A DNA stretch of 64,000 nucleotides from a virus (lineage: Duplodnaviria; Caudoviricetes), in IMG/VR virus record IMGVR_UViG_3300028797_000013, positions 2,912 to 66,911 of that record. One strand, written 5' to 3'. Positions 23,541 to 42,800 of the stretch are shown here, piece by piece. The notes under the pieces were generated by a model. It saw only the letters and a list, made by a program, of their open reading frames with translations. It was not told the origin of the DNA and did no database searches. Positions within the stretch are counted from its first letter, which is position 1. The number at the start of each line of letters is the position of its first letter. Position numbers and translations under genes: made by a program.

Positions 23541-23616
23541 TGGTGGATCTGAGCGGGATCGAACCGCTGACCTCCTGCGTGCAAAGCAGGTGCTCTCCCA
23601 ACTGAGCTACAAACCC
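23541..23616 (-). tRNA. tRNA-Ala (UGC), CCA encoded
   Basis: 76-nt cloverleaf; G3.U70 pair; TTCGATC T loop; TGC anticodon. Confidence 0.93.
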
Positions 23617-23628
23617 ATATTATTCAGA

Positions 23629-23728
23629 TGGCCCATTAAAGTACCTACACGAATCCTGAGGTATATCGGCAGCCATCAATTGGGCGGTGCTTACACCCGG
23701 TGCATTCGTGGAGCTGGTAGATGGGCCA
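23629..23728 (-). ncRNA. Candidate structured ncRNA (rod-like, ~100 nt)
   Basis: Nested complementary segments TGGCCCAT/ATGGGCCA, TACC/GGTA, CACGAAT/ATTCGTG; between two tRNAs. Confidence 0.4.
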
Positions 23729-23888
23729 CTCTCCAACTATAACCACAGGCATGACTAGGAGCACCATTAAGTTCCACATAATCCTAGCCACCTTTCGATC
23801 GCAGGCTTCCCAGCTTTATCCCTGCTTAGAGTCCACAATAACCGCATTCAAGTATCAGGTTCTTTTATGTTTCGTCTGCCATGGACTT

Positions 23889-23963
23889 TGGTTGCGGGGG
23901 CAGGATTCGAACCTGCGACCTCTTGGGTATGAACCAAGCGAGCTACCGCTGCTCCACCCCGCC
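23889..23963 (-). tRNA. tRNA-Met (CAU), initiator-like, CCA encoded
   Basis: 75-nt cloverleaf; G1/A72 mismatch and A11-U24 as in initiator tRNA; only two G-C pairs at the base of the anticodon stem. Confidence 0.9.
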
Positions 23964-27622: not shown

Positions 27623-28324
27623 CTAGTACCCTGCGCCCCACACTGGGGTGCCGTTGATCTTGATGTAGGTGTGCTCAATATCCAGCATGGCAAAGCCCGA
27701 GGACTCTGATGACGTTCTTCCATTATTCCCAAAAATGAATTGGCGGCCTGAGCGCTGAACATGGGGGTTTGTCACTTCTATCTCTCGTCTAGCCGTTGTA
27801 ATTCCGTTGGAAACTGAAAATGACCAGATTGAACCGTCCCAGCGGTAGTTCATGTCATAAATTGTTCCAGCATTAATTGGTAAATTATCTTCCGGGTATT
27901 GAGACCCACCCAAGTATATTGTATAATCCCACGTTCCTGTAGATCTATCTGAGAATCCCGCAAAAAAATGAAGATCGCATCTAACCTCAAAACTCGGATT
28001 ATAATAGAAATTGTTTGAATAATTGGTGCCGCAAATAAAAGCTCGATTTGGAAATGTAGGGAGTTCGCTTAGTTTTACTCGTGTATGGATTTCAAATGGT
28101 TGCGTAAAATCTGGTTGGAAGACCTGATTGCTTGAATCCGCCGGAGCTAGTCCAGTATTAGCTGTTGTTAAGTTAATAAACGGCCCAACCCATTTTCCAT
28201 CGGAAAAACAATTTACATACCGGGCGTTCATCTTGCTTCTGTCTAAAACCGGGGTTTTCCTCATTGGCGGTGTAGTCAAGGCCATCACCGTCGCCCACTT
28301 GATTTCTTCCTTCGTCAGTGCCAT
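27623..28324 (-). CDS. Putative receptor-binding/lectin-like tail protein
   Basis: Aromatic, beta-rich sequence; AT-richer DNA; N-terminal shared helix; GGAAAAA precedes MALTK (weak SD). Confidence 0.6.
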   Translation of the reverse strand: MALTKEEIKWATVMALTTPPMRKTPVLDRSKMNARYVNCFSDGKWVGPFINLTTANTGLAPADSSNQVFQPDFTQPFEIHTRVKLSELPTFPNRAFICGTNYSNNFYYNPSFEVRCDLHFFAGFSDRSTGTWDYTIYLGGSQYPEDNLPINAGTIYDMNYRWDGSIWSFSVSNGITTARREIEVTNPHVQRSGRQFIFGNNGRTSSESSGFAMLDIEHTYIKINGTPVWGAGY

Positions 28325-28338
28325 GTTTTTTCCCCTAT

Positions 28339-28803
28339 TCATAGTTTTATCAGGAAAAGTCTGTCGTTTGGAAACGTCTCCGAGCCTATATGCACAGAAC
28401 TAATGAAAATACTATTTGTGCCGCCTCCAGAAGAAACAGTAAAAACAGTAGGTATGCTTACATTATAGTAACTAATCCGATTTGCTCCGGTGCCAACAAC
28501 ATCTGGCAGTACGCCATTGGCATTGCAGGCCCCATACTGCACGCTGCCGCGCCATCCTGCAAATACGCTGACAGACGTAACCCAAGGCTGGAGAATGATA
28601 CCTTCCGCGCCAGTATCCGTTGCGGTCCATCTGACGCACAGGGTGCTCTCGTCGAACATAAATATATCTGGCGGCCCGGATTCAAAATACTGCTGTTTTA
28701 TGACATCAGGGACAGGGATGATCGGACCTACGCCTCCACCCCCGGTCACGTTTTGAAGGGTCATCGCCATACTCAGTCCCTGCATGATCTGTGCCCTGGT
28801 CAT
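28339..28803 (-). CDS. Putative tail-tip accessory protein
   Basis: N-terminal helix + GGGG linker + beta-rich domain. Confidence 0.6.
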   Translation of the reverse strand: MTRAQIMQGLSMAMTLQNVTGGGGVGPIIPVPDVIKQQYFESGPPDIFMFDESTLCVRWTATDTGAEGIILQPWVTSVSVFAGWRGSVQYGACNANGVLPDVVGTGANRISYYNVSIPTVFTVSSGGGTNSIFISSVHIGSETFPNDRLFLIKL

Positions 28804-29426
28804 ATCACAGTCACCTCACAAGTGTGCCCGTCCGGCCAGGTATAGGTCACTGTGTCTCCGTTCACAGTGAAGGTCAGGCCGTACTCCTCTTCGCTACCCT
28901 CCACAGTGTAAGTCACTTCCCCGTTCACCGTGTCTATCTCGCAGGAGGCGAGCCTACGGTGCTTCGCATCTACGAAGTCCGAGAGGGTGATGTCCGTATC
29001 CTCACCACCGGAGGTGACGTAGCGAATTAGCAATTCATCATTGCTGCCTAAATGCATTACTGCTTTGTTTTCTTCATCGTAAACATAAGCAATAACAGGC
29101 CAATCAGTCACTTCTAAAGTTATTGTGGTGTGCTCTGCTGTAGTCCAGTAGTAAAGATCACCATCCCATGAAAGTTGCTCAGTAGTTACCGGCGTTGCGA
29201 CAGTTGCAACAATGAAATCAATTGTGTCATCTTTTATGCGTATATAGGAGATGGCACTTTGATCACCATTCAAATAATTAAAAGCGCGTGCATAGTCTGT
29301 ACGCAGTTTCCAGATAACAGCAGCTGGCGCCGAATCGCCACCTCCTCCAGAGCCACCCACAGACCAACCTTTTAATTGGCGGCCTACAGCCATGCCAGCA
29401 AGAAGACTTTTCTTATCGTAGGTCAT
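28800..29426 (-). CDS. Putative tail-tip protein
   Basis: YDKKSLLAGMAVGRQLKGW + Gly linker; C-terminal PDGHTC. Confidence 0.7.
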   Translation of the reverse strand: MTYDKKSLLAGMAVGRQLKGWSVGGSGGGGDSAPAAVIWKLRTDYARAFNYLNGDQSAISYIRIKDDTIDFIVATVATPVTTEQLSWDGDLYYWTTAEHTTITLEVTDWPVIAYVYDEENKAVMHLGSNDELLIRYVTSGGEDTDITLSDFVDAKHRRLASCEIDTVNGEVTYTVEGSEEEYGLTFTVNGDTVTYTWPDGHTCEVTVI

Positions 29427-29429
29427 TGC

Positions 29430-30725
29430 TTAACACCTACCTTTCTTCCGAAAGATAAGAAGCAAAGCAACAACCACAAGGATATAGCTACTAAGCCCCC
29501 CCCAGTCACGCTGTCTAAACTTTATATTTTCGATAATAAAACTAAAGGGTGTTTCATCATGAATATAACCCATATCAATACAAAGATAGACATTTTGTGT
29601 GTCCTGTGCCATAAAGCCTAGCTCAAAATGATGCTTTTGTCTGTCCATACAAGCATAGGCATATCCAGTATAAGCTATAACGTAGCCCTTTTCACGATAC
29701 CAATTGAACTCATATATTGTATCACTAGGTGCACGTGACATTATTGCAATATAATCATCAGTATCTCCATAGGTAATTTCTGGAACTCCATCAGGCATTG
29801 TAATATCAAAAGAAAGGATGTAAAAAGCATTCATCGCTTGCAAACGGTGCTCTACATAGAAACGATCAAAATATGTGCCTAGGTACATTCGGGCCGTGCA
29901 GCGCTGCTCATCCAAATTAAAAGTAATATCCGCTGTAGCACCAGTACCACCAAGCCAGGTCCAACGAGACAAATCACCAAAGTAGCAAGCAGCTTTATGT
30001 GCATTTGCTCTTTTTTCATACGAGAGTCCCCCGAATAAAATGTTCCGACTCGGATTGGTGCTCATACCGTGCACAACAAAAAACCCATCATGATCTACTG
30101 ATACAGCTACAGGCGTATTAGAATTATCCCTGGAAACAAAACCATTGACTGGAACAAGTGGCTCAGGTAAACGGAATAATGGTTTATCAAAAAAAGTTAT
30201 GTCTTTCGGACGCATCCAGAATTGAATAAGTACAGCAGTATCGGTCTCATAATAGTTACACCAATACTCATTGGAGTCTAGCGTTTGTAGCTCACCACCA
30301 TAACGTGTTGGATATATTCCACTACCTACTATATAAGGTTTATTGGCAGAACCATTACGCGCAGCTAACTGCAGACCTGTATTGTCTAAGTAAAAACTAC
30401 CAGGATAAGTTGCATTACGTGGTACCCAGGAAAAAGCAGCACCAACGCCCTCCTGAAAAATAGACGTTTCTGCAGTAAGGAGTACCCCCGTATATGCTGA
30501 TACAGACAGGTTTAGCTTCATGTCTACATAAAAATAATAATCTTCTCCGCGTGTAAAATACATTGCTTTATTTGGATAAGAAGGATCACAGTTAATGGGC
30601 GTTAGCATATAAGGGCCTGACCAGTCAGCCGCGGGCACTGGCTGCCCACCAGTTCCACCTGTTGCCCAGCCTTTAAGCTGTCGACCAATGGCAACACCAG
30701 CAAGAAAGTCTTTCTTATTATACAC
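29430..30725 (-). CDS. Putative receptor-binding tail protein
   Basis: YNKKDFLAGVAIGRQLKGW + Gly linker; aromatic beta-rich; AT-richer DNA. Confidence 0.7.
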   Translation of the reverse strand: MYNKKDFLAGVAIGRQLKGWATGGTGGQPVPAADWSGPYMLTPINCDPSYPNKAMYFTRGEDYYFYVDMKLNLSVSAYTGVLLTAETSIFQEGVGAAFSWVPRNATYPGSFYLDNTGLQLAARNGSANKPYIVGSGIYPTRYGGELQTLDSNEYWCNYYETDTAVLIQFWMRPKDITFFDKPLFRLPEPLVPVNGFVSRDNSNTPVAVSVDHDGFFVVHGMSTNPSRNILFGGLSYEKRANAHKAACYFGDLSRWTWLGGTGATADITFNLDEQRCTARMYLGTYFDRFYVEHRLQAMNAFYILSFDITMPDGVPEITYGDTDDYIAIMSRAPSDTIYEFNWYREKGYVIAYTGYAYACMDRQKHHFELGFMAQDTQNVYLCIDMGYIHDETPFSFIIENIKFRQRDWGGLSSYILVVVALLLIFRKKGRC

Positions 30726-30740
30726 AGTATTGCCTCCTTT

Positions 30741-32045
30741 CTACCAGGTTATTGTGCACTCATGACCATCAGGATGCGTAATCTTAATTGGATTACCACT
30801 TCCATCAAAAGTCACAGCGTATGTAATGCTTCCACTCGATCCTTCAATTACTTCACTAAAATAGCCAGAATCCCAGCCACTAAAATCCATACTTACTGTA
30901 CGACGAAGGCCAATGAGATCAAGATACCCATCAAAGCCTGCATACATACCGATCTCTTTTCCACCTGTAGCAAGGAAGGTAATCTGTAACTTTGTGGCAT
31001 CTTTGATAATAAATGCTTTAGAGTTACCATCATTATCACCTTGTCCAAGTGTTATGAATGGCATATAATAGCCTTCAGGAGTTGTATCAAACTCGAACTT
31101 AGCCTTAGTTTCATCATTGTAAGTGTAGATATAGACGGGATAGCTAGTAGGCGTTGTTGTAGTAAAGATTCGAACACCATTATAGTATGGGTAGCCATCA
31201 GTACCAAGCGTAACGCCAGTAGCAAGCGTCTGCCCTTCTACTGCCCATACTTGCTCTTCCCAGTAAAGATTAGCCCCATATGGGTTCTTTGCTTGTTCAC
31301 TACCATTATCATAGATGCCAGCCATAAAATGGATATGCTCTTCAGCAATATCTAAGAAGTTGTCATCTGAAGTATCTTGTGCAAGGTACTTAACGATCCG
31401 GCGCGCTGTGCTTAAATGGTCTACTGTCAAATCAGCCATATCACCAAGAGCAGCATAGAGCTCATCAGCAGAGAGCTGACCGCTCACTTGAATATTGCCC
31501 TCAATAACAGCCGTACCTGTAAAGACCTCATCACCCACGAATAAGGTGATGTTAATATAGGAGTGACCTTGCCCATCACTATACTGCCCAACACTAAGGC
31601 TAATGCTCGCTTTCAGTTCATCTACCATGTCCTGTGCAGCATTCAGAAGATTCGTCATATCTTCTTCACGGGACTCAGGACAAAATTGAACATTAGAAAC
31701 TACCAGCTGACTATCAGTGTCATTGATAATCGAAAACTTGAAGACAGTATATTCGCCGGAGCGTAGCCTTATATCTTGCCGGAAGCCCATCCCATCCATA
31801 TCTATGGGATAAAGCATATAGTCATACGCATCGCCAGAGTCACACATTGCTTCGACACGGATCTTAATGTCCGGTGTGTATGAGGGCTCTGCACCGATGG
31901 CATCATTGTACTGGTCTGCTATAAAGATAATTCTAAAATACTCAGAGAGCTGCGCAATCCTTGTAGTATTGAATGTGTGAACATCTACACTGCCTGCATT
32001 CAATGTGATATGGTCATGGAGTAAGATACTGGAGCCAAATGTCAT
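30741..32045 (-). CDS. Minor tail/baseplate protein
   Basis: Position after the TMP; C-terminal PDGHEC. Confidence 0.65.
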   Translation of the reverse strand: MTFGSSILLHDHITLNAGSVDVHTFNTTRIAQLSEYFRIIFIADQYNDAIGAEPSYTPDIKIRVEAMCDSGDAYDYMLYPIDMDGMGFRQDIRLRSGEYTVFKFSIINDTDSQLVVSNVQFCPESREEDMTNLLNAAQDMVDELKASISLSVGQYSDGQGHSYINITLFVGDEVFTGTAVIEGNIQVSGQLSADELYAALGDMADLTVDHLSTARRIVKYLAQDTSDDNFLDIAEEHIHFMAGIYDNGSEQAKNPYGANLYWEEQVWAVEGQTLATGVTLGTDGYPYYNGVRIFTTTTPTSYPVYIYTYNDETKAKFEFDTTPEGYYMPFITLGQGDNDGNSKAFIIKDATKLQITFLATGGKEIGMYAGFDGYLDLIGLRRTVSMDFSGWDSGYFSEVIEGSSGSITYAVTFDGSGNPIKITHPDGHECTITW

Positions 32046-33367
32046 TCTTCATTCACCTCCAGAATCTCTGCATTAAGCAGTGTAAGAGTACCAGACAAGC
32101 CACCATCATAGCGAAGAGACTGACGGATAAGAATCCCAGTGAAATCGAGATTATATCGGCTACTATATACCCTGATCTTTTCGCCGAGTTGGAAGCGAGG
32201 ATTACCTTTAACAGAGACTTCAAGTACAGGCAGAATGCTTTGCACATAAGCATCCATAAAAGACTTAAAGGTTGTCAGATAAGCCTGTGACTGAATGTAG
32301 ATATTACTAAACTTCAGAGCATTATCACAGCCAGCATCCTCAGCATAAACTTCAGTAGTCTGAATATACTGGCCACAGAATTCAATACGACCTCGAAACG
32401 AATTCGTGAGCGTAAATATCAGGATCTCAGTAGCATTATATGTCAAAAAGTCAATATAGGGTGTCTCATCACCACTGGATGTAACATAGACTACATTAGC
32501 TACTGGCGTATTGCTAAAATTCCGATCCCGATACTGTGTAGCTACTGTGTTCACAATATCAGACTCGGTATACAGTGTAGTTACATTACTCAGCTGCGGA
32601 ATCAGTGCGCAGACTGAAGCACCATCATACTGCAGCATAATGCTCTGCTTTGTTGTAGGCTCAATGATCTGGTCATCGTCTGTGATAGTATGAGCAAGAG
32701 CTACTGTTCTATGCATGTACCTGGTAATGAGATCACCATCATGATCACAGAAAATAAATACCTGAAGGCCTCCAGCAATATTGTTCAAAAAGTCAGCGTT
32801 TTGCTGAATATGGTAGCCATAGCGTAGAGTACCGATAAGAGCACCATCCAATGTAATGGGCATACCAAGTTTTGTAAAGAACTTCTGGATGAAAGTGTTG
32901 TATGCAATGTTCTTATAAACAGGCAGCTTGACTCTAGTGGCGTTGATTATCTTACTGACCTTATCAGTGGCTGTGACAGACACTGTCTGTCCCGCAAAAC
33001 CTACTTGCCAGTCAGTCAGATAAAAGACACCAAGAGGATCCCAGTCAAAGGCCGGGGTTGCTACTGGACGCATATAGAGCTTAACCTGAACACCAACCTC
33101 AATCTTCTGATAATAAGGGCTCAGGGCATTAGTCGGGTTAAAGACGTCATTTCTGTTGGAAAGCTCAAAAGAAAGCTCATTAGCAGAAACTGAGGAGAAA
33201 GGAGCACAGTTATCTGCGCTGACTTCTTCCATTAAATCCCAGGTAATGAGATAGTTGTCCTTAGTAATGGACAGAGGTGTATTCTCAATACCATCAAAGT
33301 AGATGTCGAGCTTACACTCGATCATCCTACTCTTAGCATTATAAGCAGCATCTGTAGTTGCAGCCAT
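32042..33367 (-). CDS. Minor tail (hub-like) protein
   Basis: Second gene after the TMP; GNP..QLGE.I C-terminal motif typical of tail hub proteins. Confidence 0.65.
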   Translation of the reverse strand: MAATTDAAYNAKSRMIECKLDIYFDGIENTPLSITKDNYLITWDLMEEVSADNCAPFSSVSANELSFELSNRNDVFNPTNALSPYYQKIEVGVQVKLYMRPVATPAFDWDPLGVFYLTDWQVGFAGQTVSVTATDKVSKIINATRVKLPVYKNIAYNTFIQKFFTKLGMPITLDGALIGTLRYGYHIQQNADFLNNIAGGLQVFIFCDHDGDLITRYMHRTVALAHTITDDDQIIEPTTKQSIMLQYDGASVCALIPQLSNVTTLYTESDIVNTVATQYRDRNFSNTPVANVVYVTSSGDETPYIDFLTYNATEILIFTLTNSFRGRIEFCGQYIQTTEVYAEDAGCDNALKFSNIYIQSQAYLTTFKSFMDAYVQSILPVLEVSVKGNPRFQLGEKIRVYSSRYNLDFTGILIRQSLRYDGGLSGTLTLLNAEILEVNEE

Positions 33368-33378
33368 TGCTCTACCTC

Positions 33379-33762
33379 CTACTGCTCAATTAAGCTAAGC
33401 GTTACGTCTTTCCAGACCCACTGCTGCTTAAAGCGTGAACCATCACCTCTATGCAGTTTATGCGGGATTGCTCCCGCATAAACCGTTGCTGACTGCGGAC
33501 CCCGATCATCCGTATATGTCAGCGTATGAAAGCACTGATGAGTTGAAGGAAGGTTTGTCCACAGCAGGTCGATAATGACATCCAGCTGTGCAGAGGTAAT
33601 GGCATTCCATTTGAAGTTATACTTGCGCTTGTTAGCGACAAAGTCCATCGTCATATCACCATTGGCGATACGAGTAGACTGGGTGAGGGTGTAGTACTCT
33701 ACATTGAATTCGTTAGGATCTTTGATTTTAACGTTGTCAATATAGAAACCTGTAAATGCCAT
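33379..33762 (-). CDS. Distal tail protein-like
   Basis: First gene after the TMP; IKDP..F...R.ANGDM..D.VA.KRK..F.W motif. Confidence 0.65.
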   Translation of the reverse strand: MAFTGFYIDNVKIKDPNEFNVEYYTLTQSTRIANGDMTMDFVANKRKYNFKWNAITSAQLDVIIDLLWTNLPSTHQCFHTLTYTDDRGPQSATVYAGAIPHKLHRGDGSRFKQQWVWKDVTLSLIEQ

Positions 33763-33815: not shown

Positions 33816-36800
33816 TTAACCTCTACGCATTGATTCAGCCTGCCGAATTGAATAGAGCTTGCGCTCAAGCGTCCGAAGGCCTGCATCATCAGCAATCAAT
33901 GTACCCACATAGATCGGGGTTCTACCGTCAGTTCCATCAGCACTTGCCTGCGCAGTAGCTACTGCAGGAAGTACTCTCTCAAGGACACCTCGCGTCACTG
34001 CATCTATAAGGCCAGTCATATCAGTGCCACTACCACGAGTACCGCTAGGAGTAACTATGCCTCCATTTACCAGACCAAGAGCAGCACGAAGACCCTGTGC
34101 ACTATCAGGCATGAAGCTATCCAGTACAGGACTCATCGACAACGATACGGTGCCCCCAGCAAAAGCCTTAACCGTAGGACGATTGCCTACATACTTTTGC
34201 ACTGTTTTTGTATCATCAGCATTAAGAATCTGTGTACCGGCCGGTAGATCATAGAGACCAGCTTCGAGCAGCTTCGTATCACCATTTGGCATAATGGCCA
34301 TTTCCTTGCCAAGTTCACCAGCAAGGATCGGGAGACTCGATGCCATAGGATCTACTGTGCCACCAGCTGCAAACTGAGGCAAATTACTGACAGTGGACTG
34401 CTTGCCGGTAACGCCATCAATCTTTATATACTTAATAAGCTTACCATCAGATGAATATTCACCATAATAAGTATTACCTTGTTTATCAGTGCCTTTGTAA
34501 ACAACGTTATTTTTCGTAGAGCCAATACCAAGGAATCCACCTGAACGGCCAGCGCTAGCCTGCAAGCTCTCTAGCTGCTGCATACTAGTCATAGCCCTAG
34601 TGACAGCATTAGCAATACTCGTTGCCATCTCATCAGCAGTACCAGAGACTCCTCCAGCAATCTCACCAAGCACAGAACTAAGATTGGTGAAGCCAGTTGA
34701 TGCAGTATTCTTGATGTCATACATCTTGGTCTCACAGTTTTTATCTACCTGCGAGAGTGCTGTCTGAAGCTCATCAGGTAATGCACTGAAGGGGACCAAC
34801 GCCTCGCGGTCAATAGTTTCAGGAATGTCTGCTCCATCCACATAACCAGCAATAGCAAGCATGCCTTCATTTACATCAAGACCCAGTGTAGCTAGCGCAT
34901 CTTTGGTAGGCTGATCAATAGACTCCCAGGAAGCGATCCAGCCATCGGTAGTCTCTACAAGCCATTTGCCGATCTTACGATTGATCTCAAGGAGCTGTTC
35001 ATCAGCTACAATGCCTGCTTCTTCAAGGTACTGCTTAACAGTATCAGGCAACTGATCCCAGAGCTCAGGCTTATTTACAAAGACTGCTACAATATCACCG
35101 GCTCCCTCTTCCATAACCTGAGAGAGATCCACAATTACCTGATTACCAGCCTCTGTGGTTTTTACACCAAGTGCTTCGAGAGCAGTCACAGTTTCAGTAG
35201 TGAGGGACTCCCATTTCTCTTTACTGATGAGGGTAAAGCCGTTTGTAATTGCCTCACCGGTATTGCTAATAATCATCTGGAATTCTTCACCTGCACCAGT
35301 GAATGCAATACCAATGGATCTAAAAGCCGTAAGTATTTCTTCTGTCAGATCTTCTTCTTTGATAGGAGAGGGGACTACTACAGCATTAGCCCAATCAATA
35401 AGGTTATCCTGGATTGTTCCACCCTCTTTATCTACCAAAGCTGCGATACTATAGAACTGGTTCTTAACAATGTCAGAGACACCAGTCCAATCTAGCGCAT
35501 CAAGTGCAGACTTAAGTGTAGCATCACCACTAAGCACAGCTTCATTTGTGATCTTAAGGAAGCCATCCTCAGTAACAGTACCAATGTCTGCAATGATCTT
35601 TTCCATGTTCTCGCTCATCTGAACGCCGATGCTATCAGACAGCTTAAACATAGCTGCAGTCATGCTCTCTTTGACTTTATCAAAATTACCAAACTCAATC
35701 TCGCTGGTGTCAAAGTTCAAACTGATGCTGTATTCGCCAAGTTGATCGATGATTGCCTGACTAAAGTGCTCAGCACTGAGTGCAATATCACGTTCATTAC
35801 CAGTACGCGCTTCATTATGGTTATACATGAACGAAACAGTACCATTGCTGTTTACCTGGATGCCAGCCTCTGCAAGGATCGAAGCCTCATCAGTGGTTAC
35901 GCTAAGGGCCCCTACATCAAAGGACTGCCCGTCAAGGTCAATAATGACACCGTGTGCATCTACTGTAATACCACGCAGTGCATCAATCAACGCATCCTGA
36001 TCGGTACCCACTGTAATATAGTCAATAGCCGTAGGTCCTTGAAGCGCTGTTTCATACATGCTGCTGCCGGAGCCAAGGGTGATGCCAGCAGCTGCCAACT
36101 GGGCAAGCATTGTAGGCATGAGGCCTTCAAGAACTGCACCAGTAAGGTACTGTGCAGTGTTACCCGCAAGTACATCAATGTTGCCACCTACTGCACCATA
36201 AGTAGCTGTACTAATCCCAAGTTCAGTAAGCTTAGCTTGCTCGTAGGCATCCCAGATATCAAGCTGCTGCTTCATAAGAGCTACCGCCATGCCAGGATTC
36301 TCATCAAGAGTATAGCCCGTAATTTCACGATAGCTACTATCGCTTTCAGCAAGCAAAGCAAGATAACTTTGAATATTATCGTAAGCAGTGATTGCACGAG
36401 CATCATAGCCCATGACATCTACAAGGGCCTGCTTAAGATAATCGTTTCCATCAATGATGCCCCGCAGGGTCTCAGTAAAGTCGCCCTCTTGAGCGCCGCC
36501 GACATACATTGCCTGGATCATTGCTCGCAGTGCTTCAGTATCATCACCAAAGTAGCGAACAGCGCTGCCTGTAGCATCAAGCACACGGACATACTCTTTG
36601 CCATTTACAGCAATCTGCTCACCGAGCTGCAGACCTGCGTAGTCTTCACCGAGAATCTTTTTGATTGTTTCGAGGTCGGCTGCAGCACTTTCAAGCGGCA
36701 AAACCATCTCAGAAGAGACCCAGCTACCAATGCCATTTTGTCCCTGGTGAGCTTGTGCAATAGATGTTGCATCAATAGCACCCATTGCAGCTGCTATACG

Positions 36801-39800
36801 AACAGCTACCATTGCTTCATCACCTTGGGCCATGCCAAGAGAATTCAAGCTACGCTTAATATCTGTATCGAACCATTCAGCAAAGCCATACCCTTTACCA
36901 GTGCTACCAATATACATATCCTTAGTATAGCCACTGCCATAAAGGATGTTCTCATAGGCATTGTTACCTCGAATATTATCAGTAGGAGTGGATGTAGCAA
37001 AGCGGAATGCCTGGTATAGACTGTTTGTGCTTGCAAGCTCTACGACCTTTGCAAGGTCCTCAGCAGAAACAATACCTCCATTATCTGCTTTGATTGCATC
37101 AAGCAATGTTGCAGTGTCAGTGATGCGTGCTGCTACGACGAGGTCTGCAATCTCCTGCTCTGCGTATGTACCACTTTCACGAAGCAGCTTCTCAAACTCA
37201 GTGGTATCATATGGCGAAGCAACACCGAGACCAAATATGCCTCCGTGCTCTCTACCGGCGAGCATACTACTCCAGGTATTAACGGCTTTAGAATACTCAT
37301 CATTACCAAAGAGAGTATTCATACCAAGCGAAGTAGCTACTGCAGAAAGCCCACCAATAATGAGCCCAGGAATGCCCCCCACTACTCCGCTAATTGCCAT
37401 CATCAGAACATTGATGATACCATTGACAAACACAGACTGCCCAACGGCCTGTGCAGCACCTTCATAGATGTTATCTGCAACAAGTTCACCAGTATTGAGG
37501 CCTGCTGCTTTAATAAGTTCAGTAACCTCATCAGAAAGGAGACTTTCTACGAACAGGCCTGCAAGGTCCTCATTCTTGATGTCTTGCGTGCTCTGCCTGA
37601 TACCAGATATAACAATATCAGCAATATCAAAGATGCTATATGATGCAATATTGAACTTCAGCAACTTCCTACCGAAAGATTCGAAGGATTCATCGATTGC
37701 AGCTGCCGCTCTGTTTACTTGTTTTGCAGCATACTCACCTGCATAATATACGTCATCAGCGACGTCATAGATGACGGCCCCCTTCTGGAAATCAGCGAAG
37801 GAATCACCAAGAACATCCTTCAGATGCTTTAAGGCATCATGCACACCGTCTCCTGTCTGTCGTGCAAGCCTAAAAGTATCAATTGCATCTGCAATCTGCT
37901 CCGCAACGTCTGTCTTAAAGGCACCTTCTCTTGCTAAACGTGCATATCCATCAAGAAGCCCTTGCCAATCAGTCGTGATTGTTTCACCAATGAGCTTCCA
38001 CTCACCAGTCGCCTGATCAATATAATAAGCTACTTTATTCGAGCCACTTGAAAGAACCTTGCCAAAGGACTCAAAGTCAAGAGTCTGTGCACTACGTAAG
38101 CCTTCACGTGTCTTGATAATGAGTGAATTAAAGAAGCGTGTACGGAACGTATCTAAGTCAGCGCTTGCAATCTTAAACTCATTACTTGCTGCGCCATATG
38201 CTTGCTTAAAGCTCTTTGCAAGATCACTACTTTGATCAGGTACAGATTTCCAAAGCCTGAGTGCCTCATCAGCCTTAGCCCCAGCAACCTGCAACTTACC
38301 AAAGGCTTCAGCATAATCATTGATAGCATCCATGAGCTCAGGCACAGCCTTAAGGTCAAGGCGTCTGGTATTCGAGAAGCCGAAACCAAAGTACTGGAAA
38401 AACTTTTCATAAGCAGCCTCACCAAAAGAGCGTGCTCTGCCCATGAATCTACTAATGATGCTCGGATTAAAAGCCGCATCCTCAACACCGTCAAAGAGCT
38501 CGATGACTTCATCAGCCGTACCTGCCGCAATACGCCGGAAAGTATCTACAACATCATCGCTGACTCCATAGATGGACTTAATAAATGAATCAGGGAAATA
38601 ATCAAGTAAATCATTAGCACCAGCACCAGTGAAGAGAAGTTTTGCAGCATCATCAAAGATGTCTTCGCCAAGTGTACTTCCGCCAAGCCATTTTACATAA
38701 CGGTTAAGCCACTCCCATTGGTCAGCCACTCCAGAAGCCGTATAAGTAGCGTCGCCAATGACGTCAGCCGCTGCAGCAGCAACGCGGGCTGCTTCACTAA
38801 AGCCTTCCGCAGCATCATCAGCCAAACCAGTGATATTCCTAAAGTAACTCTCTGCATAGTCAAGGGCTTCGTCAAGCGTAGCTGCCTGATATTTGAACGT
38901 ACCTTGTGTAACTTCAAAGCCACCTTCTATACCAGTAAGTCGCACACTTTCACCAAAAAGATCTACTTTACCATTCTTAGCAAGCTCTTCTACTGCACTA
39001 TCTACAATCTGAGCACGTGTAGTAATATTTAGCTCAGCAATAGTGGCAATACGGTGTTGCTGCTGCAGCTCATCAATCGCTTGAGCTAATGTATGGCGCA
39101 TATCGCTTAGCTGTTGAATTGTGCGCTGAAAGCTTTTAACTTTAACAGGATCTGCGAGCCCTTCAAGTGCTTTTTCGAGTTCTGCTAGTTCATTGCCAGT
39201 CTGAATATAGCTTGTTTTGAGTGCTTCAATACGCGGAACAAGCGTATTCCTGAGTACTTTAGCTGTTGCAGGTTCAAGGTCATTAAGTGCATACAGAAGT
39301 TTCTTTGCTGTATCAGTAGTATTGGTTGTTACCTTTAGTAACTCTTCTGCTGCCTCAGCAAGATGGTTACCCCTAAGTGTTTTTGCAGCAGCTTGCAGCT
39401 TGTTAAGGGTACCCGAAACTTCAGTAAGGCCTGCTGCTGTTTCTGCAATTTTAGCTACTGTTCCATCTTTAATACGCTTCCAGACTTCATAAGTCATCGC
39501 AATGTCATTATCAGCAAGGTGTGCAAGATCATCAAGGGTACCGACAGAGATCTCATAGGCCTCTACCAGTTTGATATCCTTACCGAACTGAATGAACTTA
39601 TTGACTTCTTCATTAAAGAGGCGCATGACATCAGCCCCAGGCAGGAAATTCTTCCCGTCAGGCATCCATGCATTCAGTATATCAAGGTCATAACCACCAA
39701 TGTTTGATGCATTGTAACCAGAAATAAGCGTCCTATCTGCTTGCGTAAACTGATAGACTTCACGCATGACGGTATCAATGTCATTCGCTGCATCCATCAT

Positions 39801-42800
39801 ATCTACTGTGACATTTGAGAAAGCCTTCTCAAAGTCTGCGTTGATGCCACGCATATAGTCAAGCAGTGCTCTGTTTTCACTTCCCCAGCTTACCAGCCAA
39901 GAACGCTGTTCACCAGCAGTGTTGATAGCACTAATCTGAACAGGACGTGGCTGGATGGCACCAGTAGCTGTCTGAATCGGGAAGCCACTAGCCTCAATGT
40001 CAACAAAGGACATAATCTGAGGAAGTGACTGCTTTGCAGCGCGCAGGGTGGCATCAAGTGGGGCATAATTGATTTCCTGCAATAAACCTGTAAAGAGTCC
40101 TCTGATTTCTTTTTCTACACTATCCGTAACCTGAATGATACCATCGTCAATATCCTTAAGAAGCTTGTTGCCCCAAATGCTCAGATGCTCTTGAATATTA
40201 GCAATATGGACAGGAAGCTCAATCTTAAAAGCTTCTGCACTTGACAGGATACGTGTCTCTTCACCAGTGGCTTTCATAAGCTTATTAAGCTTATCAATCT
40301 GCTGGCCCATCTGGTATGCAGCAGAATCTGCCTGAAGATGTAAAAGCTCAATGAGGCGCTTATAGCTCCGAGACAGAGTAGCTACATCGTAAGCAGTAAC
40401 TGCTAAGCCATTTTCGATCTGGAAATTCAGTCTTGTTGCAGCATCTATGGTAGTCCGAATCGTCCTAGGCAGTTCGCTGGTAAGCATCGGAACTTCTGCA
40501 AGAAGCTCTGTTGCTTCAGCAAGCTTACCAAGAGCTTCACCGAACTCTGTGATATCCTGACCGGCTTTAAGGAACTGCCCATCAAGCTCTACAGGGACCT
40601 CTGTGCTACTTGCAAGCATCCTTGCAGTTGCACTGATCTTCTGCATCCCTTCTCTAAAAGTAGCTGCTGCGGCAGTTGCATCTTCACCTGCCTTGACTGC
40701 TTGGTTATAGTTTCTTACAAGCTTATCAATCTGGCTACGAACAGGAGCATGGGTAAAGAGCCCGCGTGTCTCGATTCCTTTAAGAGAATCAGGCCCAAAC
40801 AAGCTGTCAAACCAGCCTGTGATATTACGTGAGAAATCATTGTAGCTGCGCAGGACAGGCACAAAGTCCATCTCAGAAAAGACTTCCTGACCATCGCGTA
40901 CTACACTGAAATATGCCTTAGACAAATCACCAGGTACTTGCTTATTTGCAACGAGCAGTGCGATTGCCTCATTCATTGCATAGAAGTAATCAGCAAGTCC
41001 AGTGACTGCTTTAATATCTACACCAGAATAGTCAACGATGAACTCAGACATCATCTTCCTAAAGTTCTTCGTATCAAAGGCGCCCTGCAGATCTGTAAAA
41101 GCTGGCCTAATCACTTCTTCAAAGTAAAGCTTTGTAAGTGTTTCCTCATCAAGCCCCTTAAGGATATCACCTCTAAGGCTTCGATAAAGCTCAACAGCAT
41201 CAGTAGACAGATAGCGCCCTTCAAGTTTGCTTACTAGATCTGTGCGCGTATTACCACGCATAAGAGCTGCTTCAACATTCTGAGAAATAACATTATTAAG
41301 CCGACGGAAATCAAAGTCACGATTGAGAATAGAGATTAACTCACGACGATTATTAGCACCAAAAGCTTCAAGATGCGGAATAAACTCATAGTACCAAGAA
41401 GGTTTGTTTGCCGCAAGCAAAGCATTCGAGGTAATAACTTTGATACCATTAACCTCATCTACAACAAACTGAGAAAGGGTATCCACCACACTACCAGTAG
41501 TGACTTTGAAGTCAACACCAATCTCAGAGAGAAGCTGTACATTATCATTAAGTGTTTCATTGAGTGCCTTAAAGAATGCCACAGAGGCATCATTCTGAAC
41601 AATGATCGGTTGATTAGGCAAGGCTGCATGACCCGTACCATGCACGATACCAACTGCTTTGTCCATAGCATCCAAGGCAAGTGCATAGCGCATAACAGGC
41701 TCAAGGGTAACACCGAGTGCAGCAGTCATTCTGGTGAAGGCACTTTCTACACCGCTGATTCGCCCAGTGATCTTAAGCAGATCACCAAAGATCCTGTCAG
41801 TGAGCATAGGAATGCTACCACTGAACGCATCCAAGCCATTAGTAAGAACTTGGAACTTTGTACCAGTAGCTACCAGCTGATCAGCAGACACTCCAATAGC
41901 ATCAAGTGCCTTAGAAAGCTCAGGAGAAAGGCGACTCTTAAGCAATCCTCGCAATTCTTCTACTGCATCGTCAAGACCAGAAAGGTGCGGTGTGGCTGCT
42001 TCCAGTGCAGCAGTAAACTTATTATAGCTCTCAAGCGTGCCGCGTGCAACTTCAGGAAGCGTTTTCAGCTGAGCAATGCTTGAACTACCCAGAATATCTG
42101 CAAGCTCTTTCTGATATACTGCGAGAGTATACTCAAGTTCACGGATATGCCTTGTTGATTCGTCAATATCATCAAAAAGCTTTTGTGCATATTTAGTACC
42201 ACCAACAGTACTGGTATCGACTAGCTTGAAGGCTTCCTGTAACTCTACAAGCTCCTGTTTTGCAGCTTTAATAAGACTGTTCTGTGTACGGATATCAGCC
42301 TGAATGTCTGCAAGTGCGCGTGTCTCACGTATCTCAAGCTCAGCCTGCGCACGTGCAACGCGTGATTGCATCTCAGTTGCCTGCAAGGCTGCTTGCCTAC
42401 GTGCTTGATCAATCGTGGCCTGCACTTGGCTAACATTCTTAACCACTTCTTCATTTGTTTTCTCAATATACTGCATGCTAGCTTCAAGCTTACGCCCAAT
42501 AGAGTTGCTAATAGCTACTGCATTTGCTTCAGCAATGGCCTCTGGGTTGAGCTTACGCATATCCGCAGCAATATCACGAAGAAGCTGATCTGCATGATCT
42601 ACGCTGGCAATAATCTTATTCTGTGCATCAAGCTCCTGCGGAGAAATGCCCACGCGGCGTGCTGTCTCAATGGTAGTTCCTGCAACATTCCTAGAAACAC
42701 CATAGCTACTGACAGTATCAAGTGCTTTACGAATTTCTTTGGAGTTAGCATCAAAGAGGCGCAAGAACTTTACACCAAGTGCATCAATGTCAGCGGTAAG

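Follow-up and report, generated by a model that had tools for sequence, protein, structure and literature searches.

How do phages of the strictly anaerobic gut Firmicutes recognize their hosts? To our knowledge almost nothing is known of this, and the question is posed in concrete form by four consecutive genes of a phage whose DNA came from a bovine-gut metagenome. The window that we analysed is a stretch of 64,000 nucleotides (nt), positions 2,912 to 66,911 of IMG/VR virus record IMGVR_UViG_3300028797_000013, and it makes up most of that complete, 66,911-bp record, which has direct terminal repeats. A sequence-only reading of positions 27,623 to 30,725 had proposed that the four genes encoded there share an N-terminal helix through which interchangeable receptor-binding modules dock on one common baseplate site. 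All four genes are present on the minus strand with the N-termini that had been quoted for them, and our analysis points, with a probability of roughly two in three, to a receptor-binding assembly at the tail tip that is built in two tiers of plugs and sockets. In this assembly the plug would be an N-terminal helix of ~20 residues built around a small-xxx-small core; a flexible linker rich in Gly or Pro connects it to a cargo that can be exchanged freely. A protein of 434 amino acids (aa) would offer a type-B socket, on which the 431-aa and 208-aa proteins would dock via class-1 plugs; the 208-aa protein, which has no head, would in turn offer a type-A socket to the 154-aa and 233-aa proteins, whose plugs are of class 2, and the virion would bear up to three different distal heads. 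The genes of the window stand in the corresponding order: socket B (434 aa), plug 1 with cargo (431 aa), plug 1 with socket A (208 aa), plug 2 with cargo (154 aa) and plug 2 with cargo (233 aa).

The class-1 plug forms the N-termini of the 431-aa protein (29430..30725, minus strand; plug at 30663-30725) and the 208-aa protein (28800..29426, minus strand; plug at 29361-29426), on which the h1 hidden Markov model (HMM) scores 41-47 and 49 bits, respectively. Its core reads D-K-N-S-F-L-A-G-[IVL]-A-V-G-R-[QT]-L-K-G-W, and the GxxxG motif is kept in 149 of 150 class-1 plugs. The module is widespread: in a search of 1.84 billion proteins, a 32-column profile finds 355 representatives of protein clusters at E≤0.001, 25 of them at E≤1e-10, with the match placed at residues 1-30 in nearly all. 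The parts behind the helix are another matter, those of 94 class-1 proteins of at least 120 aa falling into 48 mutually unrelated groups and those of the 85 complete plug proteins from related loci into 50 cargo groups. The constant N-termini and variable C-termini for which the sequence-only reading had advised looking in relatives were therefore found, and class-2 plugs that swap on a single cargo, described below, add to them. Cargo of binding type likewise occurs among these relatives (BspA-type leucine-rich repeats (LRR), Laminin_G_3, Big_3 and CHB_HEX_C). When 60 class-1 proteins were searched against Pfam, LRR_5, the BspA-type repeat, was present in 15 and LRR_8 in 3, with Laminin_G_3, CHB_HEX_C_1, Big_3, Fn3_assoc and others seen singly. 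Because 9 of the 16 residues that are identical in the window's two class-1 segments are encoded by different, synonymous codons, the constraint on this plug acts on the protein. Judged by its profile, class 1 is a large, unannotated and exchangeable N-terminal module.

Plugs also occur in less usual settings. Two plug helices stand in tandem, with a Gly-rich linker between them, in P0042, P0145 and L095:2214-2852 (minus strand), and in loci L048 and L087 a class-1 plug lies ~160-210 residues into a longer protein, after another domain. Another two loci hold the same two plug genes in reciprocal full-length and reduced states (L010:7705-8422 vs L013:7711-8426), the full-length copy having 182 or 187 aa and the reduced copy of 54-55 aa being the plug alone. 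Plug proteins of just 66-88 aa, which consist of a plug, a Gly linker and ~40 residues, are encoded in L034, L052, L067, L074 and ~30 other metagenome loci from the gut of humans and animals; the gene that comes next in these related siphophages always encodes a protein of ~260 aa without a plug, and a small membrane protein follows. These very short proteins may be connectors for the next protein, or caps, rather than heads.

The 154-aa protein (28339..28803, minus strand) and the 233-aa protein (27623..28324, minus strand) begin with the class-2 plug, MTRAQIMQGLSMAMTLQNVT at 28732-28803 and MALTKEEIKWATVMALTT at 28247-28318, respectively. Its consensus is MT-x-x-EL-x-x-AT-x-MALT-x-QN, and the h2 HMM scores 41-42 bits on the former protein and 33-39 bits on the latter. 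The cargo of the 154-aa protein is small, at ~125 aa. Homologues of the 233-aa protein have the same cargo from DRSKMNARYVNC on, preceded by three different class-2 N-termini, namely the MALTKEEIKW type, the type of the 154-aa protein (in P0037, and truncated in P0036) and the intermediate MTREELVRATVIALSPQN (in P0039). The plug type of the 154-aa protein is thus found on other cargo in P0036, P0037 and locus L022, and in this last locus the window's two class-2 plugs are carried on swapped cargo. We take class 2 to be a separate exchangeable module.

The relation between the two classes was examined with HMMs built from sequences outside the window and scored against the N-termini of the 259 open reading frames (ORFs) of the window. 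The class-1 HMM selects exactly the 431-aa (E 2e-14) and 208-aa (E 4e-13) N-termini and the class-2 HMM exactly the 154-aa (E 8.5e-13) and 233-aa (E 8e-10) N-termini, with no cross hits between them among the 259. A profile-profile comparison of class 1 with class 2 (hhalign) was not significant, with P 0.096 over 12 columns, and the proposal that all four helices are demonstrably one family was dropped for this reason. What does unite them is their N-terminal position, their length, a predicted helix (residues 5-15 and 5-17 in the AlphaFold2 (AF2) models of the 208-aa and 233-aa proteins) and, as the gap-free alignment brings out, the register of a small-xxx-small motif, which reads GxxxG in class 1 and G/A-xxx-A in class 2. 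The Gly-rich linkers that had been noticed behind three of the helices are there (GGTGG in the 431-aa protein, GGSGGGG in the 208-aa protein and GGGG, within GGGGVG, in the 154-aa protein), and the fourth helix is followed by a Pro-rich stretch. A single docking site common to all four found no support in the analysis, since there are two helix classes and each is tied to a partner domain class of its own.

These partner domains are the two types of socket, a beta-rich domain of ~200 residues at the C-terminal end of tail-tip and fibre proteins. Type A ends in ...GDTVTYTWPDGH-x-CEV-x-V and type B in ...F-D-x-x-x-RPVKITD-x-x-GHE-x-x-x-W, and the whole window contains only two copies, of which the 434-aa protein has the type-B one and the 208-aa protein the type-A one. 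In the 434-aa protein (30741..32045, minus strand; a weak match to phrog_6211, minor tail protein) the socket occupies the C-terminal half at ~30744-31448, of which the last ~70 residues (30744-30956) are of type B and end in ...NPIKITHPDGHECTITW; the type-B HMM gives 110 bits here (E 3.8e-33), and in related phages the C-termini of Tal-like proteins and of ~300-aa fibre proteins align with this one. In siphovirus-like relatives the socket is fused to Tal-like proteins, the window having it on the 434-aa protein behind a Tal-like gene of 441 aa, and in podovirus-like relatives it is found on ~300-aa proteins with a conserved N-terminal domain of the IQNYLFMLLEELRYLLRHL type. At L044:2617-4491 (plus strand) the socket is internal, with ~320 residues after it. 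The socket profile found nothing better than E 0.1 among PDB sequences. The AF2 model of the 208-aa protein gave no Foldseek match at E≤0.001 and no VIA-align match at Z≥5 in the PDB; this model is weak (mean predicted local distance difference test score (pLDDT) 67.8) and is a monomer of a probably oligomeric domain, such that the blank search says nothing firm on the newness of the fold.

The 208-aa protein is where our reading departs furthest from that of four equivalent receptor-binding modules. Behind its plug and linker, its socket spans ~28803-29315, with the tail at 28803-29000 ending in ...VTYTWPDGHTCEVTVI, and the type-A HMM scores 133 bits. Residues ~38-208 are homologous, at 47-57% identity, to Oscillospiraceae proteins of ~300 aa, of which they match the C-terminal two thirds, the N-terminal domain being a different one, and the protein also matches the 434-aa C-terminus by BLASTP (E 3.7e-8). 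Because it is made of plug 1 and a copy of the socket domain, we read it as an adaptor and not a receptor-binding module. This combination of plug 1 and socket A is seen in this phage alone among ~85 related loci, and the database cluster of the protein contains the window's own sequence only. The gene is also present in a 90-97% identical relative from a run of another study, from which it differs by 15 listed changes, 10 synonymous and 5 non-synonymous. In run X3 the region of the 154-aa gene is almost uncovered and no contig bridges it, which is not evidence that the gene is absent.

The link between plugs and sockets is drawn from their pairing in genomes, which is strict with respect to the two classes. 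Searching with the type-B domain, we found a class-1 plug gene immediately downstream in 9 of 9 viral loci, and searching with the type-A domain only, a class-2 plug downstream in 6 of 6. From the side of the plug, a search with the plug-1 pattern only returned 60 metagenome loci with a type-B end directly upstream in all 59 that could be evaluated, the last one being cut by the contig end, and a search of prokaryotes returned two loci, in an Oscillibacter metagenome-assembled genome (MAG) from red deer and a rumen Clostridiales MAG, both with a type-B end upstream. In 301 genomes sampled from the family of the Oscillibacter MAG (Oscillospiraceae-family), where loci were found via the socket, one pairs A with 2 (L090) and four pair B with 1 (L092, L095, L096 and L111), these five being prophages. 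The totals are 70 B-to-1 and 8 A-to-2 pairs, falling into 12 and 5 clusters at 70% identity, with 0 crossed. There is also a third pair, at L091:1495-2705 (minus strand) and L093:1501-2711 (plus strand), in which an A-like end, ...LTLTWPDGASFTVEVV, precedes a 98-aa protein starting with MSIDKKSLALGLAIGGKW; this plug is class-1-like, and the pair is intermediate between the two classes. The sequence-only reading had sought the partner of the helices among the products of 30741..33367, and this holds in part: class 1 probably pairs with the C-terminal domain of the 434-aa protein, which lies in that interval, and class 2 with that of the 208-aa protein, which does not.

The distance from socket end to plug start is -4 to +17 nt in 76 of 78 loci, and the pairing may in part be no more than the inheritance of one junction block. 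Several observations argue that it reflects function beyond such linkage. Plug genes further along an array are separated from the socket gene and are still of the matching class (the 208-aa and 233-aa genes of the window, and L010, L013, L016-18, L022 and L085). Socket and plug are the elements common to two virion contexts, siphovirus-like loci with a tape measure, Dit and Tal-fused socket and podovirus-like loci in which a ~300-aa anchor-socket protein stands beside phrog_511 internal virion proteins. Conservation is at the level of the protein, as the codon differences in plug 1 indicate, and P0189, a 258-aa protein from a Logan assembly, joins in frame a type-B socket end (...SVISPDGHEIGIDW), the residues PEG, a class-1 plug (YDEYSFLAGLSMGRSMQG) and cargo of the 431-aa type, as a single record for which an assembly error is possible. 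The 434-aa socket and 431-aa plug genes of the window are in the same reading frame; a frameshift or read-through joining socket and plug as a general mechanism was rejected, given the variable spacing and frame, the plugs' own starts and Shine-Dalgarno sequences and the lack of any in-frame fusion in the loci.

The cargo parts of the four window proteins are mutually unrelated (BLASTP, E>1). The claim of unrelated beta-rich domains behind the helices stands to this extent, the parts being mostly beta in the two structure models made (208 aa and 233 aa); that of the 208-aa protein is the socket copy. The 431-aa cargo is an almost orphan, beta-rich domain with two relatives only (P0189 and P0132), and an Atlas search with the whole protein gave a best value of 0.79, below the level that counts. 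Its C-terminal tail (residues 407-431, 29433..29507 on the minus strand, WGGLSSYILVVVALLLIFRKKGRC) consists of a hydrophobic stretch and a basic end and is encoded in the most AT-rich DNA of the region. This tail is absent from both relatives, similarity to which stops at ~residue 404, and could have arisen as a scar of recombination or be a genuine C-terminal membrane anchor. For the 233-aa cargo, the structure neighbours in the Atlas are Laminin_G_3 clusters with TM scores of ~0.6, and the top Foldseek matches of its model are all legume lectins or concanavalin A (ConA)-like folds (E ~4e-4). The model is of low confidence (pLDDT 47.6) and fold matches are leads only, but on this footing the cargo looks like a concanavalin-A-type lectin. 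The expectation that such variety arises without a diversity-generating retroelement (DGR) was borne out, in that the complete 66,911-bp record has no match to the RVT_1 reverse transcriptase, with which control genomes do match; we conclude from this that the phage has no DGR.

That plug and socket make physical contact, and that the proteins are part of the virion and bind receptors, is what we infer from these patterns, as is the stoichiometry, and several considerations weigh against doing so with more assurance. The argument for docking draws on genomic co-occurrence and on the one in-frame fusion in P0189. As just described, the closeness of socket end and plug leaves room for simple linkage, and the hydrophobic end of the 431-aa protein is odd for a virion protein. 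The socket of the 208-aa protein lacks ~35 residues that are present in all other members and for this reason is perhaps not working. Many human-gut relatives have the plug proteins of 66-88 aa, which are incapable of being receptor-binding heads themselves. Finally, the intermediate pair in L091 and L093 means that the code is not strictly binary, and the plug and socket classes look more like diverged members of one co-diversifying system.

Of the other explanations, the one that survives best, though we consider it unlikely, is that the plug proteins assist tail-fibre assembly, as factors or chaperones of the Tfa or T4 gp38 kind, which would bind the C-terminal domain of the preceding fibre while it folds and would not necessarily stay on the virion, the variable part having another role or none. 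Plug genes directly downstream of a fibre gene, with tight or overlapping junctions, would suit such factors, as would the small size of many family members, and a match in subtype between the C-terminus of a fibre and the N-terminus of the next gene product is to be expected of chaperones too. Chaperones, however, track their client, yet the variable parts here sort into 48-50 groups that are unrelated to one another and abound in binding domains of the LRR, lectin and Ig types. Two to four plug genes stand in a row behind a single socket, and it is hard to see why a chaperone should bear a second socket, as the adaptor does.

A second alternative, which we regard as quite improbable, is that socket end and plug start serve mainly as a recombination linker, by which cassettes are swapped through homologous recombination, and have no docking role. 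The base composition of the plug genes is in keeping with swapping. The AT-richer DNA that had been noted in some of the cargo regions is in fact a feature of all four genes, with a GC content of 0.53-0.56 in the first 105 nt of each and 0.40-0.48 in the remainder (GC at third codon positions, GC3, is 0.31 in the cargo part of the 431-aa gene), and in 4/4 genes the step falls exactly at the boundary between plug and cargo. Cargo is mosaic among the relatives, and socket end and plug, being adjacent in the DNA, would be co-inherited. A linker of this kind does not account for conservation at the protein level with many synonymous differences, for the near-invariant GxxxG, or for plugs that keep their class away from any socket end, and the socket is a folded domain of ~200 residues and no short DNA box. 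Roles in recombination and in docking are, moreover, mutually compatible. The least probable alternative is that the virion lacks some or all of the four proteins, the 431-aa protein for example acting as a tail-anchored membrane protein in exclusion or lysis timing, for which its hydrophobic segment and basic end, the adjoining XhlA-like, holin and amidase lysis genes and the PEP-CTERM/IPTL-CTERM-type rows of an Atlas feature search (just 0.76-0.79, below the level that counts) could be cited, but the tail is missing from both cargo relatives, the same plug is carried by hundreds of proteins without such a tail, and the position of the genes itself counts against this idea because the receptor-binding proteins of Gram-positive siphophages are usually encoded between Tal and the lysis genes.

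The late genes on the minus strand run from a 3884-aa tape measure (33816-45470), directly followed by a 127-aa Dit-like protein (33379-33762; DUF6711, phrog_1194), through the 441-aa Tal-like protein (32042-33367; phrog_13879) and the 434-aa protein to the four plug genes, 3' of which lie genes for an XhlA-like protein, a 100-aa protein (phrog_15594), an amidase endolysin and small holin-like proteins. None of the four plug proteins was assigned to a Pfam or PHROG family (Pfam tested to E≤0.1). The 431-aa gene has a GTG start with a Shine-Dalgarno sequence, AAAGGAGG, 7 nt 5' of it, and the start of the 154-aa gene overlaps the stop of the 208-aa gene by 4 nt. For the last gene the longest ORF has 239 aa (28342..27623, minus strand); the ATG at 28324, giving a protein of 233 aa that begins with MALTKEEIKW, is the more likely start because a weak Shine-Dalgarno sequence is found there and database gene calls use the same start. 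Elsewhere in the window, genes for tRNA-Ala(TGC) and tRNA-Met(CAT) at 23541-23963 (minus strand) adjoin a stretch of ~60% GC.

The nearest known counterparts are the branching-domain and conserved-peptide systems of Klebsiella and E. coli phages, which include KP32, K11, KP34, G7C, K1-5/SP6 and CBA120 (Latka 2019, PMC6872550; Latka 2026, PMC13352976). In Klebsiella phage KP32, a 29-residue N-terminal peptide has been shown experimentally to dock the second receptor-binding protein (RBP), RBP2, on the branching domain of RBP1 (PMC13352976); incorporation is abolished when RBP2 lacks this peptide, and the peptide is able to carry a foreign head (PMC6872550, PMC13352976). The likeness is considerable. 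Secondary RBPs of this type have a short conserved N-terminal peptide of 7, 11 or 29 residues and then highly variable specificity domains, the same division that is seen in the 355 class-1 representatives, the 48 and 50 groups of unrelated cargo and the class-2 swaps. Some first proteins of KP34 group A, of ~300 aa, consist of an anchor and a docking domain only, and the ~300-aa anchor-socket proteins of L014, L015, L020 and L021 look alike; KpV767 has a truncated secondary RBP of 69 aa that keeps only the peptide, as do the reduced copies in L010 and L013; and multi-layer branching via RBPs with docking domains of their own has been modelled for the Menlow and CBA120 groups. The secondary RBP of a KP32-type system attaches by its peptide to a docking domain on the primary RBP, and here the plug would engage the socket in a comparable way, the evidence being 78 genomic pairs with none crossed and the P0189 fusion. 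The hosts in our case are Gram-positive gut Oscillospiraceae and the phage is siphovirus-like, a GxxxG helix together with a Gly linker would serve as the plug, and the socket lies at the extreme C-terminus with no detectable similarity in sequence or fold to T4 gp10 (the fold being judged from a low-confidence monomer model). A further difference is that two never-crossed classes are chained here via the 208-aa plug-plus-socket protein.

A precedent for reading subtype association as contact comes from T2, T6 and S16, in which each subtype of the gp37 fibre C-terminus is invariably found with one subtype of the gp38 adhesin N-terminus, as a lock with its key (Trojet 2011, PMC3157838). Because this reasoning from matching subtypes has been accepted for the T-even gp37 and gp38 (PMC3157838), it lends support to docking in our system, where B is found with 1 in 70 loci and A with 2 in 8, with none crossed and a third pair in L091 and L093. 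There, too, the adhesin gene is directly downstream of the fibre gene, and the N-terminal attachment domain of the adhesin binds the C-terminal tip of the fibre while its variable C-terminal part sets the host range. The four proteins show no sequence relation to the gp38 adhesins: they have no Pfam hit at E≤0.1 and no organisation into glycine-rich motifs (GRM) and hypervariable segments (HVS), their Gly runs being single short linkers. With ~20 residues, the attachment element here is shorter than a domain, whole domains that are unrelated to one another take the place of hypervariable loops on one scaffold as cargo, and there are several plug proteins behind one socket as well as an adaptor tier.

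A third parallel is offered by the baseplates of the lactococcal siphophages TP901-1 and Tuc2009 (BppU-BppL, BppA). Separate trimers of the receptor-binding protein attach there through their N-terminal part, and the site that takes them up is the C-terminal domain of a baseplate protein whose gene lies just upstream. Their hosts are Gram-positive and their heads are modular and bind saccharides. The N-terminal "shoulder" of BppL, unlike the plug, is a domain and not a 20-residue helix with a Gly linker. We detected no homology between the lactococcal baseplate proteins and the plug and socket proteins, and we know of no two-class code or adaptor described for those baseplates.

The principle is therefore known from other phages, and this plug, socket and adaptor appear to be undescribed. 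Tentatively, it is possible that gut Oscillospiraceae phages use mutually exclusive plug and socket pairs, among them at least B/1 and A/2 as well as intermediates, as an addressing code, with a plug-1/socket-A converter building a hierarchical, multi-headed tip on a socket fold that is new and unrelated to that of the T4 gp10 type. The practical consequences are of two kinds. A single plug HMM, which covers hundreds of protein clusters, marks the host-recognition genes of many uncultured rumen and human-gut phages and at the same time sets the bounds of their exchangeable heads. Provided that the classes prove truly orthogonal and the 208-aa adaptor functional, they would also constitute a natural and compact set of connectors for mounting chosen binding domains on phage tails, as with the KP32 peptide. 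Since the principle was already established in KP32 and the T-even phages, what the present locus adds to them is a new family and a new arrangement rather than a new concept.

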